The notes below the pieces were generated by a model. It was not told the DNA's origin. It made no database searches and saw only the letters and a list, made by a program, of their open reading frames with translations. Position numbers and translations under genes: made by a program. Positions 4,000 through 47,037 of a DNA stretch of 64,000 nucleotides are shown here, in pieces. The stretch lies in the IMG/VR virus record IMGVR_UViG_3300044800_000040, positions 4,691-68,690 of that record, one strand, 5' to 3'. The stretch comes from a virus. Each line of letters starts with the position of its first letter. Position 1 is the stretch's first letter.

Positions 4000-4731
4000 G
4001 TGGGAAAGCACACCGACATCCAGTCCCTTCTCAATGCCAGGCTCGCGACGATCTCGCCCGCACTGCCCATTTGTCACGAGAACATTGACTTCACTCCGCC
4101 CAACCCGACAGACGCCGTGCTGCCGCAGATCAGCAAGTGCTATTTCGTCGCCCGCACCCCTGCCGTCGATGACGTCTACACAATCACCATTGACGGCGTG
4201 GCGCATACGGCCTCCGGAGCAAGCCTGTCCGCGATCATGGCCGCGCTCACCGGCAGTATTGTGGGTGCAAGGCTCACCGCTAGCCCTCCCACTGTCATCA
4301 TCACAGGGGCGTCAGACGGCACGCCCTTCACCGTGGCTGTGTCCGCTGTGACAGCGGGCGGCGTGCCCATTGCCGGAGCCCTTGCGTCCCCGGCCTACGC
4401 CACCACCCAGGACGCCTTCATCGGCAATGCCTGGCTGCGCTCCTTTCTCATGGAGGGTCGCCCGATGCCCGCCACCATTGGCGTCGACGGGCTCAACAAG
4501 CAGGTCGGCGTGTTCCAGGTGGATGTGCTGTTCGCGGCGGGGGAGGGCTGGGGCGACTGCAAGGCAATGGCGGACACGGTCTGTGCGTTGTTCAAGCGAG
4601 GCACCTCCATGACCCAGGGCACCAGCCGTGTGCTTGTCGAAGGCAGCGGGCCTGGCCCGGCGACGACCGATGGCCAGTGGTACCGCATCCCCGTGTCGGT
4701 CTACTACATGGCGTTCGTGGAAAATGACTGA
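4000..4731 (+). CDS. Tail terminator (DUF4128-like) with internal insertion
   Basis: ENIDFTPP...GVFQVDV...ADTVCALFKRGT...WYRIPVSVYY. Confidence 0.7.
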   Translation: MGKHTDIQSLLNARLATISPALPICHENIDFTPPNPTDAVLPQISKCYFVARTPAVDDVYTITIDGVAHTASGASLSAIMAALTGSIVGARLTASPPTVIITGASDGTPFTVAVSAVTAGGVPIAGALASPAYATTQDAFIGNAWLRSFLMEGRPMPATIGVDGLNKQVGVFQVDVLFAAGEGWGDCKAMADTVCALFKRGTSMTQGTSRVLVEGSGPGPATTDGQWYRIPVSVYYMAFVEND

Positions 4732-36408: not shown

Positions 36409-39096
36409 TCACTCCATGATGTTGTGGCCGCACTTGGGGCAGCCGAAGACCTTTTTCTTGGTGACCTTGTCGAAGCCCTTGCGCATGAATGCACTGCCGC
36501 AGGGGCACTGCTTGGCTACCAGCTCCTTGAGGTTGTACCAGGGCTCGTCGACCAGGGTGCATTCAACCTCGATCTCCAGGGGCACGATGATCCACTTCCA
36601 CTCGGCGACAAGCTCCTTGGTCATTATACGCCGGCAGGCGTTGACGACCATGTCCAGCTCATCGGGGTCGATGCTCATGACAATGGAGTCGTGGATCTGG
36701 CCGATGGGAAACGACTTCCACTTCTCCTTGCGGGCAAGCTCGGTGATTCTGGCGAACGACCAGAGCAGGCAGTGGAACGCGCTCCCTTGCACGGGGTAAT
36801 TGATGGCGTCGTTCTTCATCATGAGCCCGCCACACTGGAAGCCGGTCAAGGTCTTGAAGTAGCCGCGCTTGCTGTATGCCTTGAGATGGTCCTCCTTCCA
36901 CTGCTGGTAGACCGGGAAGCGTTCGTACCAGAAGTGCCGCTCCACCTTCTCGATGTGCTTGGCGAAGGTGTCCTGATTGCGGATGCCAACCGAGGCCAGG
37001 TGCTCGCGCAGAGGGATGCCGTCCGCGGTCTCCTCGTGGATGCCGTCGGCCCAGAGCCCCTTGGCACAAGCCTTCCACCAGTCGCCGTAGAACTGGGGGA
37101 ACACGAACTTGTTCTTTGCTGCCTGGCGCAGCGGCTTGCTGACTTGCTTCTCCTTGAGCTTGTAACACTCGGCCGCCATGTCCCGGTGCATGTCCGTCGA
37201 GTCGTCGAAGATGTAGGTGAGCATGGTCGGGTCTTCGTGGTAGCACGCGGCAACACGCACCTCGACGCCGGAGTAGTCCAGCTCCATCATGATGTGCCCA
37301 GGGTGCGGCAGGATGGCCCGGCGAGTGATCTTCTGGCTTTCCGGGTCACGCTTGGGCACGTTCTGGAAGTTGGGGTTGGAGGAGCTGCTGCGGTAGGTCA
37401 CCACCGTGTGCAGGTTGAAGAACGGGTGCATGTAGCCGTCGACCGTCTCCCGCACCCAACCACCCAGGTACGTGCCCCGGATCTTGTCCAGCTTGCGGTA
37501 CTCGAGCAGGTCGTCCACGATGGGGATGTTCATGCTGCGCAGGGAGTCCGCATCAACCGAGGGCTTGCCGCTGGCTGTCTTCTTTGCGATCTCCACCCCC
37601 AGGTCTTCCACAATGACCTTGGCGAGCTGGTCGTCCGAGTCGAGGTTGTAGTTCGCCCCGTACCTGGCACGTAGCCCCTTGCCGAGCTTGGAGTCCATCA
37701 CGGTGGCCTTGAGGTTCTTGCAGCGCCTGTCCAGATGGGAGAGCTGGCGGTGGCAGTAGTCCATGTCCATGCGCAGCCCTTTGACCTCGGCGTCGACCAG
37801 GGCAATCGCCCCGTCGTGCAGCAGGGTGTACGCTGGCATCAGCTTGCGCCGGGCCATCTCCTCCTTCTGCTTGAGCATGAGCCGGTGCTGCACCAGGGCA
37901 TCCGTGCCGCCATACTTGAGCAGGGCGTCGATGGGTGCCTGGTGGATGCGGTTCATGGAGTTGGCGTTCTTGCGGTCCTTGCTCTCCAGGTACTTGCTGA
38001 TCTGGGTCGAGTAGTCTGCCTGGCCGAAGTTGACATACGACTGGAACTTGAGGCCGTGTACTCCCTGGCGGTTGTCCAGGACGTGCGCTGCCAGCATGGA
38101 GCACCAATCCCAGGACTGCACTCTCTGGCGCAAGGCAACGATCGACCACAGCTGCTCGAACTTGAGGCCATGCGCCGACTTGCGCAGACCCTCGTCCGCC
38201 AGCATGACCCGCATGGCCGTCTGCACTTCCTTGTCGTGCATGGTGAAGGCTACGGCATGACCTGGGTCCTGGCATACCGATGCAGTGAAGATGCGGTGCC
38301 CCTCCGCTTGAGGTTTGCGTCCAGTTGTCTCCCAGTCAAAGGAGACGACGTTGTCGCGCCTCTTGGGCAGACTTCGCAGGTAGTTGATGACTTGCTTGGG
38401 CTCCCACAAGATCTCAACCCCATCGGTGGGGTCTTCCCATGCGGGCAGGGGCTGGTCGACCAGGGTCAGCGCCGCCTTGAGGTCTTGCTTCCAGATCGTC
38501 CAGATGGCCTCGAGGTTCTCCATGCGCATGATGTAGCTGGGGTGGTAGGTCGGGCACACCCAAGCGCCGTATGTGTGCTCCGGGATGTGCCAGCCGCGCC
38601 ACTTGCCAATACCCCCGGCACTGCGCTCGCTGTCGTCCTCCTCGTCCTCGAGGTAGCGGGGCTCGAGGATGGACTGCACCGCCACGTTGCCCAGGGGAAT
38701 GATCAGCGAGGGCTTGTAGCGTTCGATGGCTTCCAGTACCCGGGGGCGGCAGCACTCGATCTCGATGTCCTCGGGGGTTCTGTTCTCTGGCGGCCGGCAG
38801 TTCACTGCGTTGGTCTTCCAGCAGTCCCGGTCGAGATCGATGTCCAGCTCGGCCAGGGTGTCGCGCAGGGTCTGGCCTGCCTTGCCCACCAGTTGGGTGT
38901 TGCGCACGTCCTCGGTGCGCCCTGGTGCCTCGGCTATGATCAGGATGCCCTTGCGCCCTTTGCCAGTTGGCTCCATGCGTGGAGAGCGGCAGGTCTTCCA
39001 AAGCCCGCACCCGTCACAACCCAGGGCACGGGGGCTGCCCTTGGCACGGGCCTTGGAGATGACCGTGGTGACTTCGGATGCCTTAAAGAAGGCCAT
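36409..39096 (-). CDS. Family A DNA polymerase with N-terminal UDG-like domain (SPO1 type)
   Basis: AEAPG..ED, NAVNCRPPENRTP, TYHPS; DWETTG exonuclease; SSSNPNFQN, DYSGVEVR, INYPVQGSA, QIHDS. Confidence 0.95.
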   Translation of the reverse strand: MAFFKASEVTTVISKARAKGSPRALGCDGCGLWKTCRSPRMEPTGKGRKGILIIAEAPGRTEDVRNTQLVGKAGQTLRDTLAELDIDLDRDCWKTNAVNCRPPENRTPEDIEIECCRPRVLEAIERYKPSLIIPLGNVAVQSILEPRYLEDEEDDSERSAGGIGKWRGWHIPEHTYGAWVCPTYHPSYIMRMENLEAIWTIWKQDLKAALTLVDQPLPAWEDPTDGVEILWEPKQVINYLRSLPKRRDNVVSFDWETTGRKPQAEGHRIFTASVCQDPGHAVAFTMHDKEVQTAMRVMLADEGLRKSAHGLKFEQLWSIVALRQRVQSWDWCSMLAAHVLDNRQGVHGLKFQSYVNFGQADYSTQISKYLESKDRKNANSMNRIHQAPIDALLKYGGTDALVQHRLMLKQKEEMARRKLMPAYTLLHDGAIALVDAEVKGLRMDMDYCHRQLSHLDRRCKNLKATVMDSKLGKGLRARYGANYNLDSDDQLAKVIVEDLGVEIAKKTASGKPSVDADSLRSMNIPIVDDLLEYRKLDKIRGTYLGGWVRETVDGYMHPFFNLHTVVTYRSSSSNPNFQNVPKRDPESQKITRRAILPHPGHIMMELDYSGVEVRVAACYHEDPTMLTYIFDDSTDMHRDMAAECYKLKEKQVSKPLRQAAKNKFVFPQFYGDWWKACAKGLWADGIHEETADGIPLREHLASVGIRNQDTFAKHIEKVERHFWYERFPVYQQWKEDHLKAYSKRGYFKTLTGFQCGGLMMKNDAINYPVQGSAFHCLLWSFARITELARKEKWKSFPIGQIHDSIVMSIDPDELDMVVNACRRIMTKELVAEWKWIIVPLEIEVECTLVDEPWYNLKELVAKQCPCGSAFMRKGFDKVTKKKVFGCPKCGHNIME

Positions 39097-39295: not shown

Positions 39296-40321
39296 CTACA
39301 CCAGCGAGATGGCGTGCATGAAGTTGTCCCCGGTGAACAACATGGCGTTCTCCGAGACCGTGGTCTCCTCAAGGTGCGCCAGGATCTCGATGAGGAACTG
39401 CGGGTTGATGACGACCTCGCGCTGCTCGCCGTCGTACTTGATGCGCCCGGTCTCCTCGAGCCAGCCGATCTTGCCCTGGGCCTTGACGGTGACCTTGCCC
39501 GGCTCCAGCACCAGGGTGACCTCCTCATCGGAGTCGAAGTCCTTCTGGCTGAAGACTCCGGCACGCGACAGCATGTCGGTCACCATCTCCTGGGGCAGCA
39601 TGAGGTCTTCGCCCTCAACGGAGAGGAAGTCGTCAAGGTCGGGGAACTTGTACTCCTCGTGGTCGATGGTGCGTGCGGACAGGATGGTGCCGGCTTCGGT
39701 GCGGAAGTGGACCCAGCCGTCAACGACGCACTGGTCGACCACCTTGAACGCAAGCAGGGCACGGCATGTCGCCGCAGGGATGAGCACCTCGGCCTTGATG
39801 GCTCCGTCCTTCATCTTCCAGCGGGTGATGCGGAACTGGTCACAGGTCTCCAGCAACGCACCGTCCACATGCACGCAGGTCAGCGCCGGCTTGGTCATGT
39901 CCCGGCTGGCGCTGAACAGGACGAAGCGGAGCCCCTCCAGGAAGTTCTCGGGCAGCTTGTTCCACTTCTTGGCAGCGTTGATGCTGTCCAGGGGCAGGCG
40001 CACTTCGCTGTCCAGGCGGATGCCCGCGTTCAGCTTCTTGCCCTTGATGAGCAACTGGCTGCCCTCGTCGCCCTGGGTGACCTCGAGGATCAGGGTCTCG
40101 TCCTTGATGCGGGTCAGCAGCTTGTGCAGCTCCTCGGCCTGGACAGCACCCTCGAAGCCGACCTTGATCGGATGGGAGACGGCCAGCTCGTCGTTGAAGG
40201 TGACAACCCGGTCACCCATGAACGCGAACGAAGTGGAGTGCTCGACGATTTCCTTATTTGCCAGACCGGGACGCACCTTGGTGAGTGCGTCCAGCAGTTC
40301 GCTTGTTTTGACCTTGGCCAT
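39296..40321 (-). CDS. dnaN: Sliding clamp (DNA pol III beta-like)
   Basis: ASRDMTKPALTCVH, TCDQFRI, KFPD, INPQFLIEIL; AAGGAGG RBS. Confidence 0.85.
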   Translation of the reverse strand: MAKVKTSELLDALTKVRPGLANKEIVEHSTSFAFMGDRVVTFNDELAVSHPIKVGFEGAVQAEELHKLLTRIKDETLILEVTQGDEGSQLLIKGKKLNAGIRLDSEVRLPLDSINAAKKWNKLPENFLEGLRFVLFSASRDMTKPALTCVHVDGALLETCDQFRITRWKMKDGAIKAEVLIPAATCRALLAFKVVDQCVVDGWVHFRTEAGTILSARTIDHEEYKFPDLDDFLSVEGEDLMLPQEMVTDMLSRAGVFSQKDFDSDEEVTLVLEPGKVTVKAQGKIGWLEETGRIKYDGEQREVVINPQFLIEILAHLEETTVSENAMLFTGDNFMHAISLV

Positions 40322-40475
40322 CGAGAACCTCCTTGATGAGTTGCAGCGCGGGCTTGCGCGTTGAGTGTCGAGTAGGAAGCAGATCCCAGTAGGAGTGCAG
40401 GACTGCGTATGCCCCGGAGCTTCGCACCATCTCCAACACATGGGGCACCTCCGCTCCGGCCAAGTAGATGATCAC
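40254..40475 (-). CDS. Micro-ORF resembling the DpdA N-terminal module
   Basis: (M)IIYLAGAE...VLHSYW; GTGA coupling. Confidence 0.65.
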   Translation of the reverse strand: MIIYLAGAEVPHVLEMVRSSGAYAVLHSYWDLLPTRHSTRKPALQLIKEVLDGQGQNKRTAGRTHQGASRSGK

Positions 40476-40630
40476 TTCTGTTCCTTCTTGAGCTCCGCCA
40501 TGCACGCAGTCGTGTCACGTGCCTGGTTCGGGCTGGTTCTGAAGTAGCTGATCAGCACAGTCGCCACGGCACCGATGTCGGCGAACATGGCGAGATGTAC
40601 TTTCTCCGCGTTGGCGATGTAGACAATCAT
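40472..40630 (-). CDS. Micro-ORF resembling the DpdA N-terminal module
   Basis: MIVYIANAE...VLISYF; ATGA coupling. Confidence 0.65.
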   Translation of the reverse strand: MIVYIANAEKVHLAMFADIGAVATVLISYFRTSPNQARDTTACMAELKKEQK

Positions 40631-40854
40631 GCCACGCTCTCCGGGTAGTTGAGCAGGAGTTCGTGCATGGCGTCCTTGAGTGCCTCCTTGGTCATCTTGT
40701 ACTCGTCCGGCCTGGAGAGGAAGTTGGGCTCCACCCGCAGGAATGCTTTGCTGGCCTGTGCCACTTTGTGCAGGCGGCGAGCGTAGGAGCGCAGCATGTT
40801 GCACTCCTCACAGCCGCTCACAATCCCTTCAATCCTCGGTGTGCGGGTCATCAC
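40627..40854 (-). CDS. Hypothetical protein
   Basis: Coupled to both neighbours. Confidence 0.55.
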   Translation of the reverse strand: MMTRTPRIEGIVSGCEECNMLRSYARRLHKVAQASKAFLRVEPNFLSRPDEYKMTKEALKDAMHELLLNYPESVA

Positions 40855-41903
40855 AGGAACCCCTTCCGGGTTGTCGGCTTCTTGAACGCCCAGGGATACT
40901 CCGGCAGAGCGTTCTGGAGGTCGAGGAAGTAGATCAAGTTGGCCTTGTCGCGCAGCAGGTAGTCGTTCGCCAGGCCCGGTTCGATGATGCGCTCGAGGCC
41001 GCGTGCGTTGCCGTCTGCCTTTGCCATGAAACGCTCGCTCTCGCCAAGCTCGTAGTCCGCGGGCACGGTGGTGAACTCGGACTTGCCCATCGGCAGCTCC
41101 TTGCTGTCGAGGTAGTCCATGACCACTCGCTGGACAGCCTGGGGCATGGTGGAGAAGTGCGCGCCGGCTTCCGTGGTGTTCGGCGACCTGGCACTCACGA
41201 AGATCTTCCAGGCTTCCTCAAGGTAGTCGTACTTGCCGCCCTTCCACCTGGGCACGTAGATGCTGCCCATGCGCGAGGACATCAGCCAGGAGGTGGAGTC
41301 GACGCTGAACCAGGGGTAGCGGATCATGAGCCGCAGGCTGGTCATGCCGAAGCCGTGGACGCGCACCTTGGGCATGCCGTCCGGCCCGCAGATGTGCTCA
41401 CCGAAGATAGAGTCGAGCCAGGGCTGCAGGTCCCGGGTAGCGATGGGCACCATGCCGCCGAGGGCAATGTAGTCGTACTGCTCCATGTACTCGTGCAGGT
41501 ACTTCACGTCCTCGCCGTAGTGGAAGCACGGCATCGGGCGCAGCCCCTGGCGCTCCATCGCTTTCTGGTTGTCGCGGGTGCCCTCGGGGTCACCGATCTC
41601 GTCGAGGTTGGCGTACACCTCGAGGTACTTCTTGTTCGCTTTGATGAAGTCGCAGTATTCCTTGATGTCGATGGTGACGCCCTTGGTGAATGCGGAGTAC
41701 GCACCCGAGTCCAAGAACAGCTTGATGTCGCGGCTCATGACTTGCTCCTTGTGAGTGGTGCGCGCCGCACGCATGGTGGCGTGCCTGTCCTGTCCAGCCT
41801 CGCAGACGTAGAAGTACGAGATGAGGCGGTACGGCGGGCCGTCCTCCAGCACCATCGCTTCACGTCCGGCCGAGCCGGTCTCACCTGCGAGGTAGATTTC
41901 CAT
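40851..41903 (-). CDS. dpdA: DpdA-like 7-deazaguanine DNA transglycosylase (TGT fold)
   Basis: LFLDSGAYS, NLDEIG, PCFH, IALGG, VHGFG, SVDSTSW; clustered with folE/queCDE. Confidence 0.82.
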   Translation of the reverse strand: MEIYLAGETGSAGREAMVLEDGPPYRLISYFYVCEAGQDRHATMRAARTTHKEQVMSRDIKLFLDSGAYSAFTKGVTIDIKEYCDFIKANKKYLEVYANLDEIGDPEGTRDNQKAMERQGLRPMPCFHYGEDVKYLHEYMEQYDYIALGGMVPIATRDLQPWLDSIFGEHICGPDGMPKVRVHGFGMTSLRLMIRYPWFSVDSTSWLMSSRMGSIYVPRWKGGKYDYLEEAWKIFVSARSPNTTEAGAHFSTMPQAVQRVVMDYLDSKELPMGKSEFTTVPADYELGESERFMAKADGNARGLERIIEPGLANDYLLRDKANLIYFLDLQNALPEYPWAFKKPTTRKGFL

Positions 41904-42060
41904 GTTGCTCCTTCTGTGCTTTGACCCAGACGGCGATGGACGGATGCTCCGCGCCGCGCCTGCTCCTGATGGCGAAGAACGAGGTGAGCCGGTAGGGGTA
42001 GAACTGGATCATGTGTTCGTCCATCTCCATCTCCCCCTTGCCGGCCGCGTAGATGATCAT
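41881..42060 (-). CDS. Micro-ORF resembling the DpdA N-terminal module (59 aa, absent from ORF track)
   Basis: MIIYAAGKGE...YPYRLTSFF; starts right after the folE stop. Confidence 0.65.
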   Translation of the reverse strand: MIIYAAGKGEMEMDEHMIQFYPYRLTSFFAIRSRRGAEHPSIAVWVKAQKEQHGNLPRR

Positions 42061-43833
42061 CTACTTGCCGCAGAGCGCCATGAGTTCGGCGCGGGCGCTG
42101 GAGCCCTTGAAGGTGTCCTCAAGGAACACGCCCTTCAGCGAGCTGTAGCCCATCACCGAGTGCTGCTTCTCAACGCCCCGGGCGGTCATGCACAAGTGCT
42201 TGGCCTCGATGATGCAGGCGGCACCCTTGGGCTGGAGGTGCGTCATGAGCGCCTCGGTGACCTGCTCGGCAATGCGCTCCTGCACCTGGAGCCGGCGAGC
42301 GTAGACCTCGAGGATGCGGGCCAGCTTGCTGACTCCGATCACCTTGCCGTCGGGGATGTAGGCGATGGTGGCGTGCCCGAAGAACGGGATCATGTGGTGC
42401 TCGCAGTTGTGGACGACAATGCCGTTCGCCACGAAGTTCTGGTGCCCTGGCACTTCCATGCACCACACGTCTTCGGTGTAGTTGAGCTCCTCAACTCCGA
42501 GTACCTTGTGATTCGGTACGCGCTGCTCCTTCCAACTGCGCTTGACGGACTCGGACCGCTTCTTGCACATTGCTTCCCGCTTGTCCGGGTCAGCCATCAT
42601 CTTTGCCAGGCCGGCCCACTGCGCGGCATCGAACGCTTCCCGCTCCTGCGTCGTCATCCTCGCCCAACGCTCGGCCTCGCGTGCCCCACGCCCGTCCTCT
42701 TGCGCGTGCAAGCGGGAGTGAGCACTCGGGGACAGGATGGACAGATTGCTCGGGTCATTGTTCGCCGGGTTGCCGTCGAGATGGTGGACGTGCTCATGCT
42801 GGCGCAGCTCTCTGCCGAGCATGGCCGCCATGATCTTCCGGTGCTCCGCAACCAGCTTGCCGTCCTTGTACTGAATGTGGCTCCTGGGCTTGTCCGCGTG
42901 CATGATGATCCCACGGAGCAGGGCAACCACCGATTCGCCGGGAAGCAGGTCCGCCGCCGCCACCCACCCGCGCTTGTATGTCAAGAAGCGGTGGTTGGGG
43001 GTGCAGATGACAGTATCCTTATCGGTGTACACCCGCACCAGCTTGGCGTCGCGCTGGGTGATCCTCGGGTTCTGGCAGCGCACGAGGTCGAACCGCTGGG
43101 TGTCCTCGTTCCAACTGTACACCCAGTCTCCGTCTGCAAGGCGACTGATGGGCACACGGCCCTTTGGGGTTTCGATGAAGGTGGAGCCTACAAGGCACGT
43201 GGAGTAGAACTCCACGTCCTTGAGGTAGACCATGCCGCCGCTGGCCTTCTCGTTGAAGACCTTGAACAGCTCCTCCACGTCGGAGTGGTAGCCTTCGAAG
43301 AGCTTGCCGTACGACTTGACCACCCTGGCCGGGGTCTCCAGCAAGCCCTCGCGGTTGGGGTCCTCGCCGATGTACTCGAGGATGCGGACGATGTTGTCCT
43401 CCGGCCCGGTCTCGCCCTTCATGGTCTCCCACCAGAACTCGACCCAGGTGTCCAGGGTGAACAGGCCGGCTTCGATCATGTAGTTGCGCTGCACCGGGGT
43501 GAAGTCAGAGTTGTTCGGCTGGGCGGAGCTGTGCTTCTTGTACGTCAGCGCCGCGAAGGGGAAGCCGAAGAACCGCTCCCTGGTCGCCCCGGTGTCACAG
43601 ATGTCGTCGACCACCAGGACCTCGGGGTCCGGCCCGGCGGGCAGGTCGGTGCGGATGGGCAGGTTCAGCAGGTTGGAGAGGATGATGGCCGGGTACAGGC
43701 CACCACGGGGCACGGGGTAGATGCTGCGCAGCATGCTGCCAGGGGGGAGGAACTGGCACTGCACGCGGATGTGCTTGGCAAGCTCACGGCAGAGCTGTTC
43801 CACAGTAGAGTGGTCGAGGACAACGCGGGGCAT
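42061..43833 (-). CDS. folE: Phosphoribosyltransferase-GTP cyclohydrolase I fusion with intein
   Basis: VPRGG and VLVVDDICDTGAT (PRTase); REGLLETPARV, CEHH, SKLAR, RLQVQE, HLCMTARGV (FolE). Confidence 0.92.
   Translation of the reverse strand: MPRVVLDHSTVEQLCRELAKHIRVQCQFLPPGSMLRSIYPVPRGGLYPAIILSNLLNLPIRTDLPAGPDPEVLVVDDICDTGATRERFFGFPFAALTYKKHSSAQPNNSDFTPVQRNYMIEAGLFTLDTWVEFWWETMKGETGPEDNIVRILEYIGEDPNREGLLETPARVVKSYGKLFEGYHSDVEELFKVFNEKASGGMVYLKDVEFYSTCLVGSTFIETPKGRVPISRLADGDWVYSWNEDTQRFDLVRCQNPRITQRDAKLVRVYTDKDTVICTPNHRFLTYKRGWVAAADLLPGESVVALLRGIIMHADKPRSHIQYKDGKLVAEHRKIMAAMLGRELRQHEHVHHLDGNPANNDPSNLSILSPSAHSRLHAQEDGRGAREAERWARMTTQEREAFDAAQWAGLAKMMADPDKREAMCKKRSESVKRSWKEQRVPNHKVLGVEELNYTEDVWCMEVPGHQNFVANGIVVHNCEHHMIPFFGHATIAYIPDGKVIGVSKLARILEVYARRLQVQERIAEQVTEALMTHLQPKGAACIIEAKHLCMTARGVEKQHSVMGYSSLKGVFLEDTFKGSSARAELMALCGK
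42406..43197 (-). mobile_element. Intein (264 aa) with in-frame HNH endonuclease
   Basis: CLVGST...CTPNHRF...VHHLDGNPANNDPSNL...NFVANGIVVHN followed by Cys. Confidence 0.92.
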
Positions 43834-43835
43834 GT

Positions 43836-44621
43836 TTACTCCTTGGTGTGGTCGCCACAAACGACACGGCGTCCGCCCGGCAGGTTGGGGTCGTCAGGGC
43901 CACCGACGAGGATGGTGTGCTCCGCGGTTAGCGTATTGTGCGAGATGTGGGGCAGCGGGTCGCGTCTCCCAGCCTTGGCGAAGGCCTCGATGCGTTCGAC
44001 GCAGGAGCCGCACTTTCCGCAAGAGGTGGGCTGGTCTTTGTAGCAGGTGCGGGTCAGCTCGTAGGGCACATTCAGCAGGGTGCCCATGATGGCGATGTCA
44101 CCCTTGTCCATGCCCAGGAAGGGAGCCAGGATCTCCACCCGGGAGCCGGTGCCCAGGAACAGGGCGGTGTCCATCGCCTTGATGAACTCGGGCCGGCAGT
44201 CCTCGTAGATGGCGTGATCACCCGCATGGACACCCAGGGCGATGTACGGGGCGCCCTTGCTCCAGGCCAGGCCCGCCATGAACGAGCTGAAGATGATGTT
44301 GCGTGCGGGCACGACGGTCGCGCTCATGCTGGCGTCGGTGTAGTGCCCCTCGGGGATGGCCGGGCCGTCGCCCATGAGCGCCGACTTGAAGCCGATGAAG
44401 GCATCGGTCAGGTCGATCAGAGTGCGCTGCAGGCCGTAGTGGACGCAGAGCTTGTCGGCGGCGGCGCTCTCGTACTGGTTGTGCTTGCTGCCGTAGATGA
44501 AAGAGATGGGGATGGGCTCGCAACCCTTGTCAATCAGATGGGCGAGCAGGGTGGCACTGTCCATGCCACCGCTGACGGCCACAACGACCTTGGTGCCTGG
44601 GACGAACTGCGGTGTGATCAT
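43836..44621 (-). CDS. queC: 7-cyano-7-deazaguanine synthase
   Basis: SGGMDS, VPARN, YEDCRPEF, TCY...CGKCGSC. Confidence 0.95.
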   Translation of the reverse strand: MITPQFVPGTKVVVAVSGGMDSATLLAHLIDKGCEPIPISFIYGSKHNQYESAAADKLCVHYGLQRTLIDLTDAFIGFKSALMGDGPAIPEGHYTDASMSATVVPARNIIFSSFMAGLAWSKGAPYIALGVHAGDHAIYEDCRPEFIKAMDTALFLGTGSRVEILAPFLGMDKGDIAIMGTLLNVPYELTRTCYKDQPTSCGKCGSCVERIEAFAKAGRRDPLPHISHNTLTAEHTILVGGPDDPNLPGGRRVVCGDHTKE

Positions 44622-44938
44622 CTGTCCTCCATTGGTGTGTAGTGTCTGACAACTGGGCGGGTGTCCTTGATGTCCATGATATGCACGGTGCGACTGATCT
44701 CGACTGGGATGCCGACGATGCGTGTAAGGGGTGGTGCCTCGGGTCCCCGGTTGACTTCGCAGTAGTTGAAAAGCTCCTGCATGTTCAGCTCGGTGAGGAT
44801 GACGTGCTGCGCCTCGGGGGACAGCCAGACCTTGAGAGACTCGCCGGGGTCGTCGTCGATGTTGGTGCTGCGGAACTTGTCCCTGTGCCGGAGCACCATG
44901 TGTACCAGCTCCATCCCCAGGTTGAACTTGAGCGCCAT
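44618..44938 (-). CDS. Hypothetical protein
   Basis: AGGAGG RBS. Confidence 0.55.
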   Translation of the reverse strand: MALKFNLGMELVHMVLRHRDKFRSTNIDDDPGESLKVWLSPEAQHVILTELNMQELFNYCEVNRGPEAPPLTRIVGIPVEISRTVHIMDIKDTRPVVRHYTPMEDR

Positions 44939-44954
44939 GCTTCCTCCTGCGGGT

Positions 44955-44985
44955 AAAAGGAAAGGGCCGAGTTGCCCCGGCCCTA
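44955..44985 (-). terminator. Intrinsic terminator
   Basis: agggccg-gggcaact-cggccct followed by ttcctttt. Confidence 0.7.
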
Positions 44986-45009
44986 TTTTACGCATTGGCG
45001 TCTTGAAGC

Positions 45010-45660
45010 CTAGAACTTGAACATGCCCTTGTCGTTCTTGGTGAGGGTGAGCCCGCACTCCTTGTTGACCCGGTTGGGGATCTGGACGGCCACGGTCTTC
45101 TTCATGGCGTCGGCGTCGCGCTCCGGGAACTTCTTGGACAGGTGCTCCAGCACCATCTCGCGGTTGAAGCCCTTCTTGCCGTTGGCCTTGGCGAACTCGC
45201 GGATGGCGGCGATGATGCCGGGGCCCTTGGCGATCTTCTCACCCTTGGTCTTGGGGGCCTTGGGCAGCTTGCCGTCCTTGGGGGTGCGCGGCACCGGGAG
45301 CTGCTCCTCCTTGGCGGCGACCTTTTCCTGGGCCTTCTGGACGGCCTTCTGGTTGGGGCCGACGCCGAGGCGCTTCAGCACGTCCCAGGTGCTGATGGCG
45401 AGCTGGTCCTTGGGCATGATCTCGTCGGCGATGCCCTTCACGGCCTCGATCAGCTCGTCGCGGGTCAGCTCGAGGTCGATGGCCGGGTTCAGCTCGAGGA
45501 TGGTGTTGATGTCGGTGGCGGCATCGACCATCTCGTCCTTGGACGGCAGCTTGGACGCGGCTTCCTTGGGGGCGGTGGCCTTGGTGGGAGCCTTGGCAGC
45601 GGGCTTGGAGGTGGACTTGGCAGGGGCCTTGGACGCGGGGGTCGACTTCTTGGTGCTCAT
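45010..45660 (-). CDS. Lys/Ala/Pro-rich putative DNA-binding protein
   Basis: Histone H1-like N-tail; strongly biased codon usage; own promoter and terminator. Confidence 0.65.
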   Translation of the reverse strand: MSTKKSTPASKAPAKSTSKPAAKAPTKATAPKEAASKLPSKDEMVDAATDINTILELNPAIDLELTRDELIEAVKGIADEIMPKDQLAISTWDVLKRLGVGPNQKAVQKAQEKVAAKEEQLPVPRTPKDGKLPKAPKTKGEKIAKGPGIIAAIREFAKANGKKGFNREMVLEHLSKKFPERDADAMKKTVAVQIPNRVNKECGLTLTKNDKGMFKF

Positions 45661-45729
45661 GTGATTCTCCCTTGATAGTTGTTTCGGCGGCTGCCGTGGA
45701 TTGCCTGTGCGCCAACGCGCTCATGACAG

Positions 45730-45738
45730 ATTATACGC
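45730..45738 (-). promoter_or_regulatory. GCGTATAAT promoter motif
   Basis: Exact motif, intergenic. Confidence 0.72.
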
Positions 45739-45778
45739 ACGGTGGCCTTCCTAACAAGCGTTTTTGCGCAAACTTTTT

Positions 45779-46549
45779 TCACAAAGTTTCGCCGGGATTA
45801 TCCTCCACCAATTCCAGCATCTTATGGATCTGGAAGTTGACGATCACGTCGAACAGCTCCGCCTCACGCAGCCAGTTCATGAAGGTGGGCATGCCGATCC
45901 CCACCGTGCCGGTGCCATGCATGACAGGGGAAAGGGCCACCCAGGGGGCATCGGCACCAGCGGCCGCAGCATTGTGGCGCACCTCGGTCAGATGGGCCAG
46001 GGCGAACTCGAAGTCGTTGAAGTCGCTGATCACGTATTTCAGGAAGGCGGGGCTCTGGCGTCCCCAGGTCAGCCAGATGGGGTCACTGGCCTCCGGCATG
46101 CGCGACCACATGCCGGAGCTCGGCAGCTTGACGTCCACCACGTAGGACAGTTTCGGGTGCAGGATGGGCGGGGGCAGACTGCCGTTGGTCTCGCAGCTGA
46201 TGGTGTGCCCACGGGAGGTCAGGGCGAGCACCAACTGGATGAACGCCTGGGTCTGCATGAGGGGCTCACCCCCGGTGATGGTCACCTTGGGGCAGCCGAT
46301 CTTGAGTACCTCATTCACGATGTAGCCGACGTTGACCTGCTGGCTGGCCTGCACCTCCCAGGTGGCTCCGCTGTCGCAATACCCGCAGCGCAGGTTGCAA
46401 CCAGAGAAGCGCACGAAGGTACTGGGGCAGCCCTGGCCGACGGCGTTCACCTCGCCGTCGATGGAGTGGAAGACGGAGAACAGGTTCACCGGGGTGCGCA
46501 GCGGGTAGGGGGTCGCCAGCATGGCGCTCTGTTCGGGGGTGAGGATCAT
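45779..46549 (-). CDS. queE: 7-carboxy-7-deazaguanine synthase (radical SAM)
   Basis: FHSIDGE, FVRFSGCNLRCGYCD, TGGEPL, ETNG, DVKLPSSG, QIHK. Confidence 0.93.
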   Translation of the reverse strand: MILTPEQSAMLATPYPLRTPVNLFSVFHSIDGEVNAVGQGCPSTFVRFSGCNLRCGYCDSGATWEVQASQQVNVGYIVNEVLKIGCPKVTITGGEPLMQTQAFIQLVLALTSRGHTISCETNGSLPPPILHPKLSYVVDVKLPSSGMWSRMPEASDPIWLTWGRQSPAFLKYVISDFNDFEFALAHLTEVRHNAAAAGADAPWVALSPVMHGTGTVGIGMPTFMNWLREAELFDVIVNFQIHKMLELVEDNPGETL

Positions 46550-47037
46550 GCTTCCTCCCTGACCCACTCGGCGTAGCTGGTGGGGGTCTCGTAGACCCGC
46601 ACACGCTGCACGAACACGGGGGTGTCTGCCAGATCGTCCTCGAGGATGTCCTTGATCTGCATGGCCATGTTTTCCGCCGTGGGCATCATGTGCGAGGGGA
46701 AGAACTCGTGGCCGTTGAGTTCCTGGTGGTCGAGCTGCTCAAGGATGGGGGCGACCATGGACTTCATGTCGTTAAAGTCCATGACCATGCCGATGTACAG
46801 CTGGGCGTGGAAGTCTCCTGGCTTGCAGTGCATGTCGGCCATGTACTCACTGGGCAGCCGGGAGATGTACGGCTCATTCGGGGTGTGCTGCATCTGCACC
46901 TCGCGGAAGTCCCGGTCGCTCATGCCGAACGTGACCTCTAACTTGCCGTTGTGGCCGTGCAACTGGCAGCACTTGCCGATGTAGCCGGGCAGGTGGTGGG
47001 CGTAGCAGAAGTCAAAGCTCTTGGTGACGGTGATCAT
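46546..47037 (-). CDS. queD: 6-carboxytetrahydropterin synthase
   Basis: AHHL, CQLHGHN, GMVMDF, LDHQELN, PTAEN, VYETP. Confidence 0.92.
   Translation of the reverse strand: MITVTKSFDFCYAHHLPGYIGKCCQLHGHNGKLEVTFGMSDRDFREVQMQHTPNEPYISRLPSEYMADMHCKPGDFHAQLYIGMVMDFNDMKSMVAPILEQLDHQELNGHEFFPSHMMPTAENMAMQIKDILEDDLADTPVFVQRVRVYETPTSYAEWVREEA

Follow-up and report, generated by a model that had tools for sequence, protein, structure and literature searches.

The 64,000-nucleotide stretch of viral DNA studied here (the window; positions 4,691 to 68,690 of the IMG/VR record IMGVR_UViG_3300044800_000040) carries a dpdA gene accompanied by three very short open reading frames (ORFs), here called micro-ORF1, micro-ORF2 and micro-ORF3, whose predicted products resemble the beginning of DpdA itself. 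DpdA is the signature enzyme of phage 7-deazaguanine DNA modification, and the differing motifs and densities of this modification are left unexplained in the accessible parts of the published accounts (10.1101/2023.04.13.536721, PMC7544227, PMC10484667). The locus raises the question of why a virus would keep one copy of a small protein module within this enzyme and three more beside it, and whether the enzyme could be assembled from separate pieces. Our answer, to which we assign a probability of roughly 55%, is that DpdA is here a split enzyme with alternative small subunits: the micro-ORFs would be real genes, a shortened catalytic core would be made from an internal start at position 41738, and the free modules would close the barrel of that core.

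In the proposed mechanism, the first ~50 residues of DpdA would provide strands 1 and 2 of a TIM (triosephosphate isomerase) barrel, the variable connector that joins them and a helix, and the remainder of the protein would provide strands 3-8 with the catalytic aspartates. In an uncultured viral clade this quarter of the barrel would be detachable, present either as a fusion to the core or as a separate protein of ~50-65 residues, usually as several diverged paralogues flanking dpdA; the window would hold one fused and three free copies. Three steps are required: (a) the three micro-ORFs would be translated as selected small proteins in the window phage; (b) a module-less core would be initiated at the conserved internal start at 41738, beside the full-length protein; and (c) a free module would place its two strands between core strands 8 and 3, thereby closing the barrel. 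The resulting alternative holoenzymes would have the catalytic core in common; what sets them apart would be the variable connector of strands 1 and 2, on the face that binds DNA. That each core-module pairing modifies another sequence context or inserts another 7-deazaguanine is a possible but doubtful extension of this scheme. The steps addressed by computation were the homology of the modules, their family-wide spread and selection, the split and fused forms, the barrel topology, and a docking model of micro-ORF1.

DpdA and its module copies

The dpdA gene (positions 40851-41903; this and all other features described below are on the minus strand) encodes 350 amino acids (aa), starting with MEIYLAGE and carrying PYRLISYF at residues 24-31. 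Its N-terminal module, residues 1-55 (41739-41903), is fused in frame to a core of 295 aa that runs from Met56 to the stop codon (40851-41738). DpdA matched PHROG 887 ("queuine tRNA-ribosyltransferase") with E = 3.9e-63 (residues 1-229 against profile positions 10-233 of 509), and the core by itself did so with E = 3.4e-60; no Pfam family was matched at E<=1, and a megablast search of the region against cultured phages gave no match. The AlphaFold2 (AF2) model of the protein has a mean predicted local distance difference test score (pLDDT) of 84.6, with the core mostly above 90 and six strand-helix units within residues 61-211. The six barrel strands of the core are at residues 62-64, 94-98, 126-128, 145-149, 181-185 and 200-202, the first of them terminating in an Asp-Ser-Gly motif, and three aspartates that are invariant in a 57-sequence alignment (D65, D101 and D202) are placed after strands 62-64, 94-98 and 200-202, respectively (barrel strands 3, 4 and 8). 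The best structural match of the model was the bacterial DpdA 7ui4 (Z 12.3, root-mean-square deviation 4.4, 247 aligned residues, model 4-335 against chain 12-409), followed by tRNA-guanine transglycosylases (TGTs). From their order along the chain, D65, D101 and D202 would correspond to D95, D130 and D256 of bacterial DpdA as given in the portion of its description at hand. On the strength of its profile match, its fold, its catalytic residues and its gene neighbourhood, we regard the window gene as a member of the phage DpdA family and its product as a predicted DNA 7-deazaguanine transglycosylase.

The three micro-ORFs flank this gene and are chained to their neighbours by start/stop overlaps or abutments (TAG-ATG, ATGA and GTGA). 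Micro-ORF1 (41881-42060, 59 aa) begins upstream of dpdA with an ATG immediately after the folE TAG, and its end lies 23 nucleotides (nt) within dpdA in another frame (41881-41903). Downstream of dpdA, micro-ORF2 (40472-40630, 52 aa), a divergent copy with the pattern MIVYIA plus VLISYF, overlaps with its ATG the TGA of a 75-aa ORF (ATGA). Micro-ORF3 (40254-40475, 73 aa) starts with GTG, which overlaps the stop of micro-ORF2 (GTGA), and its last 68 nt (40254-40321) are within the clamp gene.

Two hidden Markov models (HMMs) built from foreign sequences were searched against all 1324 six-frame ORFs of at least 25 aa in the 68.7-kb genome. The first, made from 35 DpdA-fused modules of other viruses with the window's own module excluded, ranked the DpdA N-terminus (E = 3.8e-9), micro-ORF1 (2.5e-6) and micro-ORF3 (0.0042) ahead of the best unrelated ORF (0.37), with micro-ORF2 at rank 5 (0.55). 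With the second, made from 112 free-standing modules of other loci, the four copies of the window were the top four matches (5e-8 for the DpdA N-terminus, 6.7e-5 for micro-ORF1, 1.6e-4 for micro-ORF3 and 0.76 for micro-ORF2). Comparison with the free-module profile by hhalign gave probabilities of 91% (P 1e-6) for micro-ORF1, 73% (3e-5) for micro-ORF3 and 24% (8e-4) for micro-ORF2; the best of 60 random ORFs from the same genome reached 2.1%, so that micro-ORF2 is above all 60. Neither the micro-ORFs nor the module taken alone matched a Pfam or PHROG family at E<=1, a word-index protein search with micro-ORF1 retrieved micro-ORF1 alone, and a search of the ESM Atlas with micro-ORF1 gave no usable match.

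On this sequence evidence, micro-ORF1 and micro-ORF3 can be called homologous to the DpdA N-terminal module beyond reasonable doubt. Micro-ORF2 is a probable, much-diverged member, which we include because of its place in the array and its by-eye likeness to the module at the same position of the nearest relative. A preliminary description of this DNA, made from its sequence alone, had reported dpdA, an AAGGAG-6 nt-ATG element inside it, and three translationally coupled micro-ORFs repeating its N-terminal pattern. Its coordinates and motifs were correct throughout and the coupling stands, save that micro-ORF3 begins with GTG and not ATG; the similarity that it saw in all three copies is significant by profile comparison for micro-ORF1 and micro-ORF3 and weak for micro-ORF2, with the foreign HMMs as well as with hhalign.

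The base composition of the proposed frames is that of genes. The GC content at third codon positions (GC3) is 0.90, 0.79 and 0.75 for micro-ORF1, micro-ORF2 and micro-ORF3, respectively (the last in its non-overlapping part), and the order GC3>GC1>GC2 is shared with the known genes (GC3 0.87-0.92). The module copies of the window share 22-33% identity with micro-ORF1, and the longest DNA repeat between copies is at most 19 nt; they are old paralogues. A recent tandem duplication was considered as their origin and is ruled out by this lack of any repeat longer than 19 nt together with the low identity.

Free, fused and split forms in related viruses

Related viral loci were found with an alignment as query, a search with the single DpdA protein having found none. 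Eighty loci were fetched, and 79 were used after a motif filter had dropped one in which dpdA is cut at the contig end. When their 13,825 six-frame ORFs were searched with the first HMM, the module matches on the dpdA strand and on the other strand numbered 190 versus 0 at an independent E-value (i-E) <=1e-3, and 282 versus 1 at i-E<=1. A compositional artefact of the HMM, considered as a source of the matches, is ruled out by the 190 versus 0 split. At least one free module ORF is present in 67 of the 79 loci (mean 1.9 per locus, up to about six), and a fused module is present in 37. The free modules sit directly before dpdA or within ~2.7 kb after its start, often with overlapping stops and starts; an ATG-coded Met stands at the expected module start in 134 of 153 free matches, and their median length is 58 aa. 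Against 1.84 billion representative proteins, the free-module profile matched 745 clusters at E<=1e-3; among the best 150 of these, 136 are of at most 95 aa, eight consist of a doubled module, another joins two modules through a long linker, and the remaining five are DpdAs bearing modules in tandem, two or three of them. The nearest relative (locus L016, 56% DpdA identity) has the order module, fused DpdA, module, module, clamp, which is the layout of the window. Free modules thus characterise an entire uncultured clade of DpdAs and are not unique to the window genome.

Alignment of 116 modules revealed seven positions (M1, I3, Y4, A6, R24, L25 and S27) conserved at 89-100%, and a highly variable region at positions 8-23, with a connector spacing of 14-27 aa (one outlier of 1 looks like a regular-expression mis-match). 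Module types such as TW, xAP and GGMTV were sorted via by-eye patterns in 73 loci, which left 84 copies as "other". Two or more types occur in 40 of the 73 loci. Upstream-type modules can occur fused to the core; TW, xAP and GGMTV never do, and they are downstream in all architectures except one. The stop of a free module ORF is usually found a short way inside the gene or module that follows, in a different frame, both in the window (41881-41903 and 40254-40321) and in many related loci (for example L005 3646-4279 and L076 6081-6545); the C-terminal tails of such modules are consequently out-of-frame readings of the next start.

These data bear on one rival explanation of the locus, that only the full-length fused DpdA matters, that the micro-ORFs are decaying partial duplications or serve only to couple translation, and that the Met at codon 56 is no start. 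The strong divergence of micro-ORF2, the out-of-frame overlaps in which micro-ORF1 and micro-ORF3 finish, and the fact that AAGGAG is a Lys-Glu codon pair that recurs in frame are all as expected from it. Yet the free modules are open, Met-started and on the dpdA strand only in 67 of the 79 loci, and they fill 745 protein clusters. In 13 close pairs of free modules from different loci, the pooled proportion of synonymous differences (pS) is 0.38 and that of non-synonymous differences (pN) 0.07, with pN<pS in all 13 pairs and five synonymous changes against none non-synonymous in one of them, a pattern that we read as purifying selection. The preservation of the four-module layout in the nearest relative despite only 56% DpdA identity, the coding GC3 pattern in the proposed frames, and the absence of any DNA-level repeat marking a recent duplication likewise oppose decay. 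This explanation fits the data poorly, and we consider it improbable.

If the micro-ORFs are genes, the next question is whether a core without a module is made. An AAGGAG hexamer resembling a Shine-Dalgarno (SD) sequence (41745-41750) is separated by a 6-nt spacer from an ATG (41738-41736), which is codon 56 of dpdA, reading MSRDIKLFLDSGAYS. Among the best 119 DpdA homologues, 80 are short or intermediate forms and 39 are long forms with the ~50-residue module. In 76 of the 80 the protein starts 5-13 residues ahead of the conserved Asp-Ser-Gly motif. A Met at this junction (3-14 residues before the motif) is present in 33 of the 39 long forms, against 3.8% expected from the frequency of Met elsewhere in the modules. 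Codon 56 is placed exactly where module-less homologues begin. An SD-like 4-mer precedes 7 of 16 junction Mets versus 15 of 117 other internal Mets in the same genes.

The split state itself is found among relatives. When 112 non-redundant free modules were compared with DpdA-fused modules by blastp, 91 gave matches, 13 of them at 50-73% identity over at least 40 aa, and thus one and the same module is a gene of its own in certain viruses and a portion of DpdA elsewhere. In 22 of the 79 cores an in-frame stop lies less than 30 codons ahead of the catalytic motif, and for this reason these cores cannot carry strands 1-2. Free modules are in the locus of 21 of these 22 truly short cores, the exception being without downstream flank. 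The stop of a module ORF is within 60 nt of the core start in 10 of the 22, and modules are downstream only in 10 of the 22 (one with little upstream flank). Should a closed barrel be required, the closing would have to fall in these viruses to the free modules, the downstream kinds included.

The majority of short forms (80 of the 119 homologues) would also suit an assembly error in the window: the fused frame across 41738 would then be false, and the module would have a gene of its own beside a short dpdA, the arrangement of the 22 truly short relatives. In two other runs, both belonging to a single study, short contigs covering 41601-41837 and 41639-41849 cross the junction with two differences each and no gaps, which makes an error in the fused frame unlikely; fused forms are present in 37 of the 79 related loci, and the nearest relative is itself fused. 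An assembly error fits the data poorly and is very improbable. The four public runs compared yielded mostly short dpdA pieces of other organisms plus a few near-identical short contigs. The two contigs (41601-41849) come from a wastewater study, whereas the one run that contains the stretch in full, and may be its source, bears the label peat; the coverage is too small for a statement about habitat.

The place of the module in the barrel

The position of the module in the fold can be read from the AF2 models, in which its secondary structure is reproducible. Its predicted elements are a strand at residues 5-7, a helix at 12-21, a strand at 26-28, and helices at 30-34 and 40-51. In the structure alignments, TGT residues 41-59 are matched by residues 1-3 of the model and TGT residue 96 by its residue 59, and the module falls at TGT residues ~45-95. 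In bacterial DpdA, D95 is the first of the conserved active-site residues and the strand-3 insertion comprises residues 97-109, according to the part of the structural report that was available (PMC10164549); because D95 is listed first and adjoins this insertion, it would follow strand 3. Both the fold alignment to TGT/DpdA and the position of the first catalytic Asp behind strand 3 indicate that the module is the first quarter of the TIM barrel, strands 1-2, and would carry two of the DNA-facing loops. The same source describes an insertion after strand 1 of bacterial DpdA that contributes to the DNA-binding surface, and insertions after strands 2 and 3 that border the active site and may confer sequence specificity (PMC10164549).

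The complex of the core (residues 56-350) and micro-ORF1, the sole partner modelled, was predicted in three runs with each chain given as an alignment. The interface score ipSAE (interaction prediction score from aligned errors) was 0.87, 0.88 and 0.87, against 0.00 for the best of three controls. In calibration, 58 of 80 solved complexes attained the mark used, as did 2 of 110 mismatched pairs; since our own alignments served as input, these counts apply only roughly here. The runs agreed in at least 80% of contacts, with a partner pLDDT of 58-62. Residues 2-5 of micro-ORF1 contact core residues 199-202 (strand 8), residues 24-28 contact core residues 62-64 (strand 3), and the last helix adds further contacts. 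The model thus places micro-ORF1 in the gap of the core's barrel with the geometry expected of barrel closure, and supports, for this one module, the binding supposed in step (c) of the mechanism.

The preliminary description had treated codon 56 as an internal start and had suggested that a truncated barrel could be completed in trans by the small modules. The putative start lies where module-less homologues begin, the module corresponds to TIM-barrel strands 1-2 in the AF2 model and structure alignment, micro-ORF1 is predicted to fit the gap, and synteny extends to the four-module layout of the nearest relative.

The most serious competitor to a split enzyme accepts the micro-proteins as real and selected and gives them another role: regulation or inhibition of DpdA (for example of its timing), binding to another partner (for example a host TGT/DpdA-type enzyme), or self-assembly, in which two modules would form a half barrel and four a whole one. 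That the window DpdA already has a module in cis, that the downstream types TW, xAP and GGMTV are never core-fused in the 73 loci sorted, that AF2 confidence in the module is low, and that core-less two-module proteins and DpdAs with two or three tandem modules exist are all in keeping with such a role. It is harder to reconcile with the 10 of 22 truly module-less cores that have downstream modules only, with the fact that what is conserved in every module type is docking strands 1 and 2, or with the modelling of micro-ORF1 in the barrel gap where controls scored 0.00; the gene context, moreover, suggests no partner but the adjacent dpdA. We consider another role somewhat unlikely. Examples of the tandem-module DpdAs are P0149, P0164, P0207, P0136, P0242 and P0056 (L006 3845-5032), and of the core-less two-module proteins P0122, P0124, P0128, P0131, P0143, P0146 and P0195.

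Several observations count against the split-enzyme reading. With regard to the start, AAGGAG followed after 4-9 nt by ATG or GTG occurs 26 times in the window on both strands, and a second in-frame AAGGAG-spacer-ATG lies within dpdA at 41090, with 79 codons following it, and is probably a mere Lys-Glu codon pair; because of it the perfect SD sequence at 41738 proves little alone. The SD-like word stands at the junction in only 7 of 16 relatives, and the junction Met could be the leftover of a recent fusion. With regard to the small genes, micro-ORF2 by itself lacks significance in both HMM searches and in hhalign, the pairs used for pN and pS are few, non-independent and from relatives rather than the window genome, and no free-standing module was found among 980 six-frame ORFs of six cultured-phage loci. 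With regard to the structures, the module in cis reached a pLDDT of only 48-65 in two AF2 runs with different alignments, the second of which, with the long forms alone in its alignment, brought no gain (48-58). The docking model covers micro-ORF1 alone with a partner pLDDT of about 60, and the high score of the complex may come from its resemblance to the intact TGT/DpdA barrels on which the predictor was trained. A search of PDB sequences with the DpdA family profile gave three chance matches only (E 0.58-0.72) and no TGT or DpdA, and the link to TGT/DpdA therefore rests on the fold (Z ~12) and the PHROG name. Finally, the tandem-module DpdAs and core-less two-module proteins may indicate another module role, since one barrel slot cannot hold all tandem modules at once.

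Gene context and comparison with known systems

The window, with a GC content of 62%, makes up most of a complete viral genome of 68,690 bp that has terminal repeats. The minus-strand order of the locus is queD, queE-like, two ORFs, queC, folE, micro-ORF1, dpdA, the 75-aa ORF, micro-ORF2, micro-ORF3, clamp and family-A polymerase. All four genes for preQ0 synthesis beside dpdA have Pfam matches. Directly upstream of micro-ORF1 is the gene for GTP cyclohydrolase I (FolE) with an intein carrying an HNH endonuclease (42061-43833; GTP_cyclohydroI 5.9e-61, Intein_splicing 1.3e-17, HNH_3 1.8e-7), preceded by those for QueC (43836-44621; QueC 4.6e-52), a QueE-like radical S-adenosylmethionine (SAM) protein (45779-46567; Radical_SAM 1.2e-11) and QueD/PTPS (46546-47037; PTPS 1.2e-30). 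By these matches FolE, QueC, QueE-like and QueD (42061-47037) would constitute the preQ0 pathway. Two ORFs of 146 and 216 aa between queC and the queE-like gene (44618-45058 and 45010-45660) had no match in Pfam or PHROG scans; they could be candidates for additional modification enzymes. The 75-aa ORF (40627-40854) between dpdA and micro-ORF2 is chained to both neighbours by overlaps; it matched nothing in Pfam or PHROG, neither HMM recognises it as a module, and the nearest relative has no ORF at its position. Directly downstream of micro-ORF3 is a sliding clamp gene (39296-40321, its start at 40321), whose Pfam match, DNA_pol3_beta_3 at 5.5e-5, is under the curated cut-off; the order dpdA-clamp-polymerase is kept in cultured relatives. 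The family-A DNA polymerase (36409-39096) has an N-terminal domain of the uracil-DNA-glycosylase superfamily (residues 48-202, 2.4e-21).

What is new here is the detachable, multi-copy quarter-barrel beside DpdA. In the DpdA papers searched, among them 10.1101/2023.04.13.536721, PMC6884629, PMC10484667 and PMC10164549, and supplementary data apart, no description of free or split modules of this enzyme was found. Were small exchangeable proteins to form part of the surface that faces the DNA, this would offer a handle on the differences in motif and density among DpdA systems. If, in addition, each core-module pairing had its own target context or inserted base, rearranging genes of 50 residues would let a phage broaden or change the modification pattern with which it evades restriction. 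The enzyme would be, to our knowledge, the first natural one with a TIM barrel closed by alternative free quarter-barrel subunits, which would bear on the evolution of TIM barrels from small pieces and on the design of split enzymes. For annotation, hundreds of unannotated viral ORFs of 50-65 residues would belong to one dpdA-linked family, and the start of dpdA differs between gene callers.

The nearest known systems are cultured Queuovirinae and their relatives (Pseudomonas phages JG054, NP1 and PSASB_03, Escherichia phage ChristophMerian and Rhizobium phage RHEph04), whose DpdAs belong to PHROG 887 and are ~40-45% identical to the window DpdA by tblastn. The phage DpdA family inserts 7-deazaguanines into phage DNA, as stated in the consulted sections of two reports (PMC6884629; 10.1101/2023.04.13.536721). 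The window shares with these phages the gene order queE/C/D, folE, dpdA, clamp, polymerase and the N-terminal module pattern fused to the core. The six cultured loci differ in having the module in fused form only, with a longer connector, and tblastn of two free modules against cultured phages gave no match; split cores, free paralogues and tandem modules set the clade of the window apart.

The bacterial DpdA 7ui4, from the Dpd restriction-modification system, resembles the window protein in its TIM barrel and in having, so far as its description was accessible, the first catalytic Asp after strand 3. It is a single polypeptide of 413 residues, unlike the split form proposed here, and its likeness to the window DpdA is in fold only, with none at the sequence level. 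As far as the available portion of its description goes, zinc is bound at a Cys3-His site, strand 8 is followed by a large insertion, and the protein lacks the N-terminal sheet lid of TGTs (PMC10164549).

TGTs share the barrel fold of the window DpdA (Z 11.5-12.2), and their substrate, unlike that of DpdA, is tRNA. The eukaryotic TGT is a heterodimer of QTRT1 and QTRT2, a catalytic subunit and a non-catalytic paralogue. The partner there is a whole second barrel, whereas the partner proposed for the window core is a quarter barrel. Type I restriction-modification systems offer a conceptual likeness without homology, in that one catalytic core would be served by several small partners: their HsdS variants are exchangeable specificity subunits. 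HsdS is a separate DNA-recognition protein outside the catalytic fold, unlike the proposed module, which would be part of the fold. A further parallel is offered by the half-barrels of HisF and the quarter-barrel view of TIM evolution, in which whole strand-helix pieces assemble non-covalently into a closed barrel. Those are known as laboratory constructs or evolutionary reconstructions, whereas the split in the window would be a natural one, dividing the barrel into 2+6 strands with several alternative pieces to fill the smaller share.

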